Below are positions 18,802-23,330 of a stretch of 64,000 bases of DNA, one piece after another. The notes below the pieces were generated by a model. It was not told where the DNA came from and ran no database searches. It saw only the letters and a program-made list of their open reading frames with translations. The DNA comes from Escherichia coli. GTDB lineage: Bacteria; Pseudomonadota; Gammaproteobacteria; Enterobacterales; Enterobacteriaceae. Location: the NCBI RefSeq assembly GCF_017348835.2, contig NZ_CP071375.1; one strand, given 5' to 3'. The stretch's first letter is position 1. Every line of letters begins with the position of its first letter. Position numbers and translations under genes: made by a program.

Positions 18802-19437
18802 TTAGTTCACAAACAGTGCTTCGCTATCGACGATGATTCCATCTTCCGCACCTTTAAGCGCCAGGTTTGCCTCGTAGTATTGCTTTTTATCAAGCAGTTT
18901 CTGCGCATCAGCAAGTGCATTACGAGTCTGTTTAAGCGGCATCAGATATTGGTTTTCCATTACGCCAACACCGGCCAGGCGAAGCTCTTCCATTGCGCCC
19001 TTTTTATCCCCTTTCGCCATTTTTTCATTGGCAATTTTTATCGCGGCTTCTTTTTCGGGTGTTGCTACATAACTCTCAGAAATTCCGACAGATGCATTAA
19101 TGACAATATATTGGTCATCATTGAGATTGGTCTTTTTACCTGGCTTAGCGAACTTTGCCCATTCGGTACTGTCATCTGACAACAAAGCGGAAGCTTCATT
19201 GGTCAGTTCTTTTGCCTTTTCCGGATCGCCATGAAACAGAGCCAGGCGCGCTACCTGCACGTCACGCATCGCATATAAACCTTGTTCAGAGATACGCTCT
19301 GCTGCCGCTGCCGTTTTCTGGGTTTGCTGAACTTGCTGAGTTTGCTTTTGTGCCGCTACCGGAGCATTATCAGCAGCCCATACAGTTGAAGATGCCAGAA
19401 TTGCTGTGACCATCGTGGCCATAATTAAACGTTTCAT
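18802..19437 (-). CDS. yfdX: YfdX-family periplasmic protein (EvgA regulon)
   Basis: 211-aa ORF with a signal peptide ([21 protein letters not shown]). Confidence 0.9.
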
Positions 19438-19533
19438 ACTTACCTCATTCTTTAACAGTTTTAGAAAACGCCGCCATCATATTGGGTGAGCATGAAATGA
19501 GAAATCAGAGAGCAACGGTCATTTTGAAAGGGT

Positions 19534-19590
19534 TATCTTACAGTTGTAGTTATTATCGCAAGAAGTATTTTAGTCTTACAATTGTAGGAA
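19534..19590. promoter_or_regulatory. Two adjacent EvgA-box-like inverted repeats upstream of yfdX (ATCTTACAGTTGTAGTTA and GTCTTACAATTGTAGGAA)
   Basis: Both match the TTCYTACA-N2-TGTARGAA pattern (13-15 of 16 positions) and lie 100-150 bp upstream of the yfdX start. Confidence 0.5.
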
Positions 19591-19732
19591 TATGCTTCCT
19601 GTCACAGAGAACTATTCTTATGTACCACAAAGAGATGTCATTTATTATATCGATGTAAATATTGATTAATTATATGTAAATACAGCCATAACATCGTACA
19701 TTCTCAGTGAACCATTTTCAGGATAACTTTCT

Positions 19733-20008
19733 ATGAAAGTAAACTTAATACTTTTTAGCTTATTTTTATTGGTCTCTATTATGGCATGCAATGTTTTTGC
19801 ATTTTCCATTTCTGGTGGTGGAAGTGAGAGGAGCTATAAAGAGACGGAAAAAACATCAGCGATGACGACAACTCACTCTACAAAAATTCAGCCATCACAG
19901 GCAATTTTGTTTAAGATGAGAGAAGATGCGCCACCATTAAACCTCACAGAAGAAACCACGCCCCCTTTTCCGACAAAGGCGAATTATCTTATTCATCCTG
20001 TGCGATAG
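19733..20008 (+). CDS. ypdI: Small predicted lipoprotein
   Basis: 91-aa ORF with signal peptide and lipobox-like ...SIMAC; divergent from yfdX. Confidence 0.8.
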   Translation: MKVNLILFSLFLLVSIMACNVFAFSISGGGSERSYKETEKTSAMTTTHSTKIQPSQAILFKMREDAPPLNLTEETTPPFPTKANYLIHPVR

Positions 20009-20084
20009 CGTCTGTCACCTGGCAGGTGAACAATCATGTCTGATGCTGATGTGAACACCTGCCCAAATGAGCCATCCTGACCCA

Positions 20085-20327
20085 CTATCGCCTGCCATAC
20101 CCCACCATAAAGCGAATCATCAAGCCACAAGCCGGGGCAAGAAACATAAATATCCCCGTCACCAGTTCATTACCGCCAGTTAACCACATGGTGAAGTAAT
20201 AAATGAGTGCAGCGAGGATCACCATGCCGAAGAAAGAAGAGACCGCCGATACCACGTTCAGTACCTGACCGATGTATCCGCTTACGCAGACAATACACAG
20301 GGCGAGAAACATCCATAAATAAATCAT
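20085..20327 (-). CDS. yfdY: Small inner-membrane protein (DUF2545)
   Basis: 80-aa ORF with two hydrophobic helices. Confidence 0.8.
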   Translation of the reverse strand: MIYLWMFLALCIVCVSGYIGQVLNVVSAVSSFFGMVILAALIYYFTMWLTGGNELVTGIFMFLAPACGLMIRFMVGYGRR

Positions 20328-20679
20328 AGCTCAACCTCCTGCCGCGCTAAAAAACCTGTAACTTCAGTCACTTTAATAGTAAGACAATCCTTACCCTCTG
20401 GCAATTTTTGCTAAGCATCAATGAAAACAGCATGTTAAATGCAACACTATTGCATGCGGAAAATTTTTTACTTTGCACGATTAATAATCAGTAGCTGAAA
20501 GCAGTCAGCCAGTGATAAAGTAGAGCCACCGCATTCATGCTCCTCGTGGTTATGTCCTGACTAGTCTTTACACTCTTTACAGGAACCATTGTCGTACATG
20601 ATGGCCCAACCAATTGAGTGTACCGCTGTCGACATGGAATCTTCTGCGATACAACAATTCGTATCTACAGAAGGTAACT

Positions 20680-21600
20680 ATGTTTCCACAATGCAAATTT
20701 TCCCGCGAGTTTCTGCATCCTCGCTACTGGCTCACATGGTTTGGGCTTGGTGTACTCTGGCTTTGGGTACAGCTTCCTTATCCTGTTCTCTGCTTTCTCG
20801 GCACGCGTATTGGCGCAATGGCGCGACCATTCCTGAAACGGCGTGAATCTATCGCCCGTAAAAACCTGGAACTTTGCTTCCCGCAGCATTCTGCGGAAGA
20901 ACGCGAGAAGATGATTGCCGAAAACTTTCGTTCACTCGGCATGGCGCTGGTAGAAACCGGCATGGCGTGGTTCTGGCCCGACAGTCGCGTACGTAAATGG
21001 TTTGATGTTGAAGGGCTGGATAACCTTAAACGCGCACAAATGCAAAATCGCGGCGTAATGGTTGTCGGCGTCCATTTTATGTCGCTGGAACTGGGCGGCC
21101 GCGTGATGGGACTTTGTCAGCCAATGATGGCTACCTATCGTCCACATAATAATCAGCTGATGGAATGGGTGCAGACCCGTGGTCGCATGCGCTCTAACAA
21201 AGCGATGATCGGCAGAAATAATCTGCGCGGCATTGTCAGTGCACTGAAGAAAGGTGAAGCGGTATGGTTTGCTCCCGATCAGGATTATGGTCGTAAAGGC
21301 AGCTCCTTCGCGCCGTTCTTTGCGGTAGAAAATGTCGCCACAACCAATGGCACCTATGTTCTCTCCCGTCTCTCTGGCGCAGCCATGTTGACCGTAACGA
21401 TGGTAAGAAAAGCGGATTACAGCGGATATCGTTTGTTCATCACCCCAGAGATGGAAGGCTACCCGACAGATGAAAATCAAGCCGCTGCCTATATGAACAA
21501 GATTATCGAGAAAGAGATCATGCGCGCACCGGAGCAGTACCTCTGGATCCACCGTCGCTTTAAAACGCGCCCGGTGGGAGAATCGTCGTTATACATTTAA
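20680..21600 (+). CDS. lpxP: Lipid A palmitoleoyl-ACP acyltransferase (cold-induced LpxL paralogue)
   Basis: ORF 20614-21600 trimmed to the internal ATG (MFPQCKFSREFLHPRYWLTWFG), 306 aa; lauroyl/myristoyl acyltransferase family. Confidence 0.9.
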   Translation: MFPQCKFSREFLHPRYWLTWFGLGVLWLWVQLPYPVLCFLGTRIGAMARPFLKRRESIARKNLELCFPQHSAEEREKMIAENFRSLGMALVETGMAWFWPDSRVRKWFDVEGLDNLKRAQMQNRGVMVVGVHFMSLELGGRVMGLCQPMMATYRPHNNQLMEWVQTRGRMRSNKAMIGRNNLRGIVSALKKGEAVWFAPDQDYGRKGSSFAPFFAVENVATTNGTYVLSRLSGAAMLTVTMVRKADYSGYRLFITPEMEGYPTDENQAAAYMNKIIEKEIMRAPEQYLWIHRRFKTRPVGESSLYI

Positions 21601-21955
21601 CAAACTGCTCTGACTCTTTACCTCCTCACATAAGCCATAATAACCTCATGGTTTTTATGGCTTTTTTCTTAAGGTTTTTTCCTTCGCTGAATATCTAATT
21701 ATTACCGTCAGAAATTAAACTGTCGCCGATATGAGACACCTGTAAGTTACTAAAAGTAAATAAGAAAATGCCTCTTGTCTCGTTTCAGTTTTAGGCGTAC
21801 ATTAGCGCCGTCTCGAGCAGTTTAGCTCAGAATTCTGGGGTGATGCCCACGGTAAAATACAGGACTTTTAAGGTCGTTTTGCCCGGTGTCAACTCACTGT
21901 ATCAGGTGTAATGAAGTCATTCAGGCGTAACAGCAATTACGCGGAGAGATGTAAA

Positions 21956-22027
21956 GTGAAATATTTCTTTATGGGCATTTCTTTTATGGTCATCGTTTGG
22001 GCCGGTACTTTTGCCCTGATGATCTAA
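21956..22027 (+). CDS. ypdK: Small membrane protein (23 aa), missed by the 60-aa ORF cutoff
   Basis: GTG start preceded by GGAGA at about 8 nt; encodes MKYFFMGISFMVIVWAGTFALMI, a single predicted TM helix; followed by a terminator hairpin. Confidence 0.7.
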   Translation: MKYFFMGISFMVIVWAGTFALMI

Positions 22028-22035
22028 AAGCAAAC

Positions 22036-22066
22036 TGTGCAATGAAAAACAGGAGCCATCAGGCTC
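22036..22066. terminator. Bidirectional intrinsic terminator between ypdK and alaC
   Basis: Hairpin AACAGGAGCC-atca-GGCTCCTGTT flanked by A-run and T-run. Confidence 0.65.
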
Positions 22067-22091
22067 CTGTTTGCATTTCTGAGGTCGGTGT

Positions 22092-23330
22092 TTATTCCGC
22101 GTTTTCGTGAATATGTTTGCTGCTGGCGGGTAGTAAACCGTCGGCACGGAACATCGCTTTAATCCCACGAATCGCCTGACGAATACGGTCGCGGTTTTCA
22201 ATCAGTGCAAAGCGCACATGCGTATCACCATAGTCGCCAAAGCCGATCCCCGGCGAGACACAAACCTTCGCTTCGTTAAGTAATTTCTTGGCAAACTCCA
22301 GCGAGCCCATGGCAGCGTAAGGTTCAGGGATTTTCGCCCAGACATACATCGAAGCCTTCGGCATTTCGACCATCCAGCCCGCTTCATGCAGCCCTTTAAC
22401 CAATACATCACGGCGGCGTTTGTACTGTTCGGCAATGTCGCGCACGCACTGTTGATCGCCCTCGAGTGCCGCAATCGCCGCCACCTGCAACGGCGTAAAG
22501 GTGCCGTAATCGTGATAGCTTTTAATACGTGCCAGGACGCTGACCAGCGTTTTGTTGCCAACCATAAAGCCGATACGCCAGCCCGCCATGTTGTAGCTTT
22601 TCGACAGCGTAAAGAACTCGACCGCCACATCGCATGCACCCGGCACCTGCATGATTGACGGCGCTTTCCAGCCATCGTAGACGATATCGGCATAGGCCAG
22701 GTCATGGACCACCAGCACATCGTAGCGTTTCGCCAGCGCCACAACCTTTTCGAAGAACTCCAGTTCCACGCATTGCGCGGTTGGGTTCGACGGGAAGCCG
22801 AGGATCATCATCTTCGGTTTCGGATAACTTTCACGAATGGCGCGCTCCAGTTCGTTGAAGAAATCGACACCTTCCACCAGCGGCACTGAGCGTACCTGAG
22901 CCCCGGCAATCACCGCGCCGTAAATATGAATGGGGTAACTTGGATTCGGCACCAGCACTGTGTCACCGTGATCCAGTGTCGCCAGCATCAGATGCGCCAG
23001 GCCCTCTTTCGAACCAATAGTGACGATGGCTTCTGATTCCGGGTCGATTTCAACGTCGTAGCGATCCTGATACCAGCGGGAAATGGCGCGACGTAGCCGC
23101 GGAATACCGCGTGAAGTGGAGTAACCATGCGTGTCCGGGCGCTGGGCCACAGTACATAATTTTTCGACGATATGCGGCGGAGTCGCACCGTCCGGGTTAC
23201 CCATACTGAAATCGATAATATCTTCGCCGCGCCGACGCGCAGCCATTTTCAGTTCAGCGGTAATGTTAAAAACATAGGGCGGGAGACGATCAATGCGCGT
23301 AAAGCGACGTTCAGGGCGAGTGTCAGCCAT
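22092..23330 (-). CDS. alaC: Glutamate-pyruvate aminotransferase (PLP-dependent, class I)
   Basis: 412-aa ORF with aminotransferase class I signature (...[12 protein letters not shown]...). Confidence 0.93.

Follow-up and report, generated by a model that had tools for sequence, protein, structure and literature searches.

The yfdY-lpxP interval of Escherichia coli: a divergent control region with the published cold-switch leader of lpxP and a probable second promoter

In the cold, LpxP replaces laurate by palmitoleate on lipid A, so that the outer membrane stays fluid. The gene is preceded in Escherichia coli by a long intergenic interval, and the question raised by this locus is how much of that interval is lpxP leader and whether the leader takes part in cold control. 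We addressed it in a 64,000-nt stretch of E. coli DNA (contig NZ_CP071375.1; hereafter the window) which, over positions 20000-21000, is 100% identical to strain PE164 and 97.8% identical to K-12. Inspection of the letters alone (the sequence-only reading) had put about 350 bp between yfdY and the lpxP start and had seen there a long 5' region; by annotation the distance is 352 bp (20328-20679), the same as in K-12 (2495293-2495644). Because yfdY (minus strand) and lpxP (plus strand) form a divergent pair, according to both the ORF list and the RefSeq annotation, the gap contains a shared promoter region and cannot all be lpxP leader. Very probably, the interval is a divergent control region in which 20528-20679 is the leader published as a cold switch, with a hairpin that we equate with its alternative form and a probable second promoter.

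Transcription starts and promoters between yfdY and lpxP

The transcription start sites (TSS) were taken from Kim et al. 2012 (supplementary file 2, PMC3415461), whose printed upstream 50-mers were matched to the window sequence. The lpxP start (2493515, plus strand, 101 reads, 5'UTR of 152 nt) falls on A20528, which corresponds to 2495493 in K-12 U00096.3. The yfdY start (2493356, minus strand, 5'UTR of 42 nt) falls on 20369, its upstream 50-mer being the reverse complement of 20369-20419 with one mismatch. Within the gap, only the 152 nt from 20528 to 20679 are lpxP leader, and the remainder consists of the yfdY leader and two promoters. The long 5' region of the sequence-only reading, which was silent on the divergent arrangement, is therefore real, with a start mapped well away from the ATG, but it takes up less than half of the 352 bp.

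The features of the interval are collected in Table 1. The -10 element of the yfdY promoter ends 7 nt before the mapped start of that gene. On the other side, we assign to lpxP an extended -10 promoter (P1) composed of a -35-like CTGAAA (20495-20500), a TG (20513-14) and the -10 hexamer TAAAGT (20516-21), i.e. TGaTAAAGT; at the same columns Citrobacter and Salmonella have CTGACA ... TGgTACATT. A sigma-S/sigma-70 ChIP peak in published data (2493450-2493549, equivalent to 20463-20562 of the window) spans P1.

A few side observations concern this promoter region. An extended -10 of the form TGnTAnAnT (TGATAAAGT, TGGTACATT, TGCTACATT, TGCTATATT) recurs upstream of the lpxP leaders of many genera (window 20513-20521; loci L006-L014, L015-L027, L036, L049 and L055), in flanking sequence that cannot be aligned. 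In E. coli strain XH987, a urine isolate (NZ_CP102675.1; L083:3021-4249), an IS3-family element sits between the -35 and the -10 of P1, at about 20508 of the window; this insertion should uncouple the lpxP leader from its native promoter. Lastly, a perfect palindrome, ATGCAA-N5-TTGCAT, is present at 20439-20455 between the yfdY and lpxP promoters; it is not kept within E. coli, since K-12 has AATGCAAGACTGTTGTGT there.

In the mechanical list of open reading frames, lpxP runs 22 codons further upstream, from an in-frame TTG at 20614. This extension (20614-20679) is almost certainly not translated: the stretch is the RNA switch considered below, and the ATG at 20680 has a Shine-Dalgarno (SD) sequence.

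Table 1. Coordinates, in the window, of the features of the yfdY-lpxP region
Feature	Position	Strand	Basis and remarks
yfdY CDS	20085-20327	-	ORF list; RefSeq annotation of PE164 and K-12
yfdY 5'UTR, 42 nt	20328-20369	-	Kim 2012 TSS; fold unremarkable (z = +0.33)
yfdY sigma-70-type promoter, TTGCCA-17-TACTAT	20376-20404	-	Promoter scan
Promoter and spacer DNA			Invariant columns: 81% in Escherichia; 13-19% with E. albertii and nine Citrobacter
lpxP promoter P1, extended -10	20495-20521	+	6 nt upstream of TSS A20528
lpxP 5'UTR from P1, 152 nt	20528-20679	+	Kim 2012 TSS; published thermometer
Leader 5' domain (invariance)	20528-20611		Invariant columns: 95% in Escherichia; 62% with E. albertii and nine Citrobacter
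Leader 5' domain (extent of conservation)	20531-20612	+	Conserved only in Escherichia, Citrobacter and Salmonella
Candidate sigma-E promoter P2, GGAACCA-N16-CCCAA	20582-20609	+	Motif; predicted TSS at ~20615-20617
Leader core switch	20612-20679		Invariant columns: 98.5% in Escherichia; 46% with E. albertii and nine Citrobacter
Alternative hairpin, candidate SLalt	20619-20653	+	Best local fold with SD and AUG barred from pairing
SL hairpin	20631-20684	+	Masks SD GAAGG (20670-74) and start codon AUG (20680-82)
Anti-SD strand AUCUUCUG	20639-20646	+	Common to SL and the alternative hairpin
lpxP CDS	20680-21600	+	306 aa, Kdo2-lipid IVA palmitoleoyltransferase; ORF list; RefSeq annotation of both strains
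First 60 nt of lpxP CDS			Invariant columns: 93% in Escherichia; 70% with E. albertii and nine Citrobacter

Mutually exclusive hairpins in the lpxP leader

The lpxP 5'UTR has been described as an on-off cold switch (PMC13271884, Nat Biotechnol 2025; preprint bioRxiv 10.1101/2024.09.16.613214). Placed under an IPTG-driven promoter, the leader blocked expression at 37°C and permitted it at 10°C; deletion of the UTR abolished control, and the leader blocked LpxP synthesis in the PURE system too. At 37°C there was one dominant conformation, a stem-loop (SL) masking the ribosome-binding site (RBS) together with the AUG. Two approximately equimolar conformations were present in cells at 10°C, the second being a register-shifted form, SLalt, with RBS and AUG free, and stabilisation of SLalt gave constitutive expression, also in the PURE system. 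Both hairpins were reported to have covariation support, with covariance-model homologues in other Gram-negatives including Salmonella, and the leader was proposed as a synthetic-biology part. The leader element is therefore already published and mechanistically characterised: the sequence-only reading, in proposing a structured leader with post-transcriptional control in the cold, had guessed right, and the guess is not new.

Our fold predictions are in keeping with a structured leader. The leader plus the first 21 nt of the coding sequence (20528-20700) gave a minimum free energy (MFE) of -44.1 kcal/mol (z = -2.75 versus shuffles), and the SL hairpin taken alone gave -20.1 kcal/mol (z = -4.82; 0/200 shuffles as good). 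Its helices are 20631-37/20678-84, in which GACAUGG pairs with CUAUGUU and covers the AUG, 20639-46/20668-75, in which the anti-SD strand pairs in the MFE structure with CAGAAGGU and covers the SD, and 20648-52/20661-65. The alternative hairpin, weak in E. coli (-6.2 kcal/mol, z = +0.36), has as its arms GUACCGC (20620-26) and GCGAUAC (20646-52), which oppose C and A as a mismatch at their centre; there are two inner pairs as well (G20631-C20641 and A20632-U20640). Since the anti-SD and GCGAUAC, which make up the 5' strand of SL, are also the 3' strand of the alternative hairpin, the two are mutually exclusive. We infer that the alternative hairpin is the published SLalt and that the predicted SL is the published SL, each being matched by the verbal description in PMC13271884 only. 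An extension of SLalt by AAUUG/CAAUU (20612-16/20655-59) was rejected as specific to E. coli, being broken in E. albertii and Citrobacter.

In the mechanism that we propose, the last ~55 nt of the leader would fold at equilibrium into SL, with the anti-SD paired to the SD and GACAUGG to the AUG region, so that ribosomes could not load; in the cold, SLalt would take over the 5' strand of SL as its own 3' strand and free the RBS and AUG. SL being ~14 kcal/mol more stable than SLalt, the cold state must be maintained either kinetically or by a chaperone. The rival to this is a self-contained RNA thermometer of the classic kind, with a balance between SL and SLalt that follows temperature by itself, as proposed for cspA. 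The length of the 5'UTR is near that of cspA (152 versus 159 nt), and PMC13271884 groups lpxP with the cspG, cspI and cpxP thermometers. In the predicted equilibrium, however, whether the transcript begins at 20528 or at 20616, SL is at least 98% populated at 10, 25, 37 and 42°C and the alternative hairpin is ~0 populated at these temperatures, which would explain why temperature alone is insufficient. In the same published work the RNA showed no refolding in vitro between 37 and 10°C, CspC and CspE bound the UTR, and a cspE knockout lost ~50% of cold expression. We regard a self-contained thermometer as very unlikely and retain the chaperone-assisted or kinetically maintained switch.

When the window is aligned with other Escherichia, Citrobacter and Salmonella, conservation begins abruptly at ~20531. 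Judging from the proportions of invariant columns (Table 1), the transcribed leader is under about the same constraint as coding sequence, and the promoter and spacer DNA is not. In Escherichia, Citrobacter and Salmonella the E. coli SL is 87% paired, the figure for slid controls being 34-49%, and no compensatory changes in SL were found among these closest relatives. In the C. freundii group the SD, CAGGUG, lacks complementarity to the local UCUUC strand; details of the switch therefore differ between clades.

The 5' domain of the leader is a separate matter. In its RNAalifold consensus, GUGGU/UCCUG (20546-59) pairs with CAGGAACCAU (20580-89), and in that of the whole leader the preferred long-range pairing joins the SD/AUG region to the 5' CAUG/CCU, so that pairing between the 5' end and the SD/AUG may contribute too. 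The alignment held zero compensatory changes for the consensus pairs of the 5' domain, and a sequence-only search with the leader (nhmmer) gave matches confined to Escherichia, Citrobacter and Salmonella. One helix of the E. coli MFE structure, ACACUCU/UGAGUGU, was set aside: it is mostly conserved, but in the three variant sequences the pairing is broken and not compensated, and it is absent from the RNAalifold choice.

To look beyond the closest relatives, 80 lpxP loci were retrieved from other Enterobacterales, and 81 leaders were examined. The module GUANCGC - loop - GCGNUAC - ~25-30 nt - start codon is found in 70 of them. In these 70 loci there is virtually no change in the six outer pairs of the stem (20620-20626/20646-20652 in the window); at the central position the opposed bases vary freely and almost always form a mismatch (C/A, C/U, A/C, U/C, G/G and others). 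Such conservation of the outer stem, beyond what pairing needs, might point to recognition of its sequence or to dual constraints on pairing. The loop between the arms ranges from 5 to 36 nt and, in most classes, ends in a pyrimidine-rich anti-SD. A covariance model built on the short-loop class (R1) has 20615-20691 as its sole match in the window; at default filters it misses most of the long-loop and Enterobacter versions.

Pairing of the anti-SD with the SD was assessed in 30 non-redundant genera by an own-versus-other comparison. The 12 nt located 5' of GCGNUAC pair better with the SD region of their own leader (-5.77 kcal/mol) than with those of other species (-4.23 ± 0.32 kcal/mol; 1/20000 permutations), and a flanking control had no such preference. 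For the long-loop class (n = 25), the SL helix was taken over from the Klebsiella fold; it is 81% paired with 5 compensatory pairs, and its covariation score is 0.168 versus 0.123 ± 0.010 (reached by 0/500 shuffles; slid controls at most 0.11). Unbiased RNAalifold folding gives the alternative hairpin as the consensus of each of the two loop-length classes (96.7% and 89.6% paired). On alignment A4, which gives the latter value, it has 3 compensatory pairs, and its inner pairs covary (0.199 versus 0.135 ± 0.015; 0/500 shuffles). The outer stem gives no covariation signal because its sequence never varies. Similarly, the own-versus-other comparison was negative for the inner SLalt pairing of the long-loop class (-3.11 versus -3.44) because those bases are conserved. 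In alignment A3, columns 38 and 41 pair with different partners in SL and in the alternative hairpin, and both partnerships change together; this is the signature expected of a switch.

Enterobacter, Lelliottia and Silvania (L015-L027 and L043) are variants on this theme. TTG appears to be the start codon of their lpxP orthologues (ATTTTGTCTCAA), and the GUANCGC/GCGNUAC hairpin is minimal and lies ~30-75 nt upstream of the start. As its loop is only 5-7 nt, it cannot accommodate the anti-SD; the SD, UAGG, pairs instead with a CUAU just before the start codon.

Conservation of the leader could also be due to DNA-level elements only, i.e. an embedded sigma-E promoter and sites for regulators, the hairpins being incidental. 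A sigma-E-like motif at 20582-20609 is positionally conserved, and the outer stem of SLalt and much of the 5' domain are invariant, without covariation. Yet conservation persists downstream of any predicted TSS (20612-20679), and the variation in arm-to-arm loop length fits an RNA stem and not a fixed-spacing dimeric DNA-binding site. The anti-SD/SD and inner stems covary, and the mutants reported in PMC13271884 show that the structure is functional. We give the DNA-level explanation no better chance than the self-contained thermometer, i.e. a very small one.

Still less credence goes to the gap being a divergent promoter region only, with an lpxP start near the ATG and a cold induction that is purely transcriptional. 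Divergent genes do require promoters in part of the gap, and sigma-S and RpoH ChIP/SELEX peaks fall within it. The mapped start 152 nt upstream and the far stronger conservation of the transcribed part than of the promoter DNA speak against such a reading, as does cold-only translation conferred by the 5'UTR alone with an IPTG-driven promoter and in the PURE system, as reported in PMC13271884; between them, the TSS map and these published UTR-swap experiments already refute it. Least credible of all is control, through translational coupling or attenuation, by a short leader uORF (AUG 20537, MLLVVMS*, end 20560): although this 7-codon in-frame ORF begins 9 nt from the TSS within a conserved stretch, it has no SD, two Citrobacter sequences have ATA in place of its ATG, and in another sequence the ATG is replaced and the frame shifted, so that the peptide is not conserved though the nucleotides are. 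The RNA switch thus remains the preferred reading of 20528-20679.

A candidate sigma-E promoter inside the leader

Sigma-E promoters have a consensus of the GGAACTT-N16-TCTGA type. The candidate in the leader (P2, Table 1) has in E. coli a weakly matching -10, CCCAA, for which relatives and other genera have CCTAA, TCTAA, TCAAA or TCTGA. By itself the motif is near chance frequency (4 in the window versus 1.66 expected), and therefore only its positional conservation counts as evidence. In 32 of the 70 loci, the end of a motif nnAAYnn-N16-YCNRA lies 8-17 nt (mode 10) upstream of the GUANCGC arm. The spacers of these loci are unrelated, and the genera represented include Escherichia, Citrobacter, Enterobacter, Lelliottia, Silvania, Klebsiella, Kluyvera and Buttiauxella. 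In published sigma-E studies lpxP (ddg) is a documented promoter of the sigma-E regulon and a ChIP target; ddg does not appear in the text of Rhodius 2006, and our search found no published TSS for the Klebsiella orthologue of lpxP. On this comparative evidence, P2 probably provides a second start and a ~63-nt leader which begins just upstream of the switch. PMC13271884 mentions neither sigma-E nor a promoter inside the leader, and the positionally conserved candidate directly upstream of the switch is what the present comparison would add to it. Between them, the mapped starts, the published RNA switch and two or three promoters account in full for the 352-bp interval.

One relative shows an insertion at this place. 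In Salmonella enterica subsp. diarizonae (L014:1236-1431) the lpxP leader carries ~195 nt which part the switch (AGAGTGTACCGC) from the sigma-E-like -10 element (GGCCTAAC), the core switch downstream being intact. The insertion has 23-nt terminal inverted repeats (78% complementary), and its core, GAGCTTACTCAAGTAAGTGATTCAGGTGGGCG, resembles the ERIC/IRU repeat.

A further possibility is that the choice of promoter sets the default fold of the switch. In predicted folds of nascent transcripts, the alternative hairpin forms first when the transcript is short, and when it is long the alternative-hairpin region is paired with upstream sequence. The P1 transcript would thus have upstream partners (ACACUCU/UGAGUGU and UUAUGUC/GACAUGG) for the region of the SLalt 5' arm and would be locked in the OFF state until cold and CspE act. 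The sigma-E transcript, with a predicted start ~3 nt before GUACCGC, would form SLalt first during its synthesis and might be translated in envelope stress at 37°C. This scheme, drawn from fold models and absent from PMC13271884, seems doubtful to us, though less so than the alternatives dismissed above; if true, promoter choice would let a single RNA element receive both the cold and the envelope-stress input.

The lpxP leader among known thermosensors

An Rfam 15 scan of 19000-23000, with E up to 10, matched no family to the interval (20328-20700). Compared with the switch of PMC13271884, the element analysed here comes from the same locus of the same species, and identity of the leader among Escherichia is 95-98%. 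RBS and AUG are masked in the predicted SL as in the published one, the mutually exclusive, upstream-shifted hairpin covaries, and there is no known difference, the coordinates of SLalt being compared by description only.

The cspA-type cold box is UGACGUACAGA, near the 5' end of the leader. In the lpxP leader, the only counterpart found was TGTCGTACA at 20590-98, i.e. mid-leader. Homology was rejected after the cspA sequence was checked: the 9-mer is at chance level (41/100 shuffles) and its GUACA loop varies in Citrobacter. Another likeness, between CUCCUCGUGGU at 20541-20551 (CCCCUCGUGGU in Citrobacter) and CCCCUCGUAGU of the cspA 5'UTR (L084:157-167), amounts to 10 of 11 positions and, by a rough estimate for two 150-nt leaders, is not significant.

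The sequence-only reading had also likened lpxP to other cold-shock genes, and this holds in part. As in the cspA family (cspA, cspB, cspG and cspI), there is a 5'UTR of ~150-160 nt, an extended -10 (TGn) promoter and a pair of alternative folds which hide or expose the SD and AUG, an arrangement called analogous in PMC13271884. The likeness does not extend to refolding by temperature alone: unlike cspA, lpxP has none according to the same paper, is OFF at 37°C when cspA is not, and partly needs CspE. True on/off cold switches dependent on an RNA chaperone are rare, and the lpxP leader is one of them. With the zipper thermometers of the ROSE and fourU types it shares a hairpin that masks the Shine-Dalgarno sequence, but its logic is the opposite, since those thermometers melt and turn ON when warm.
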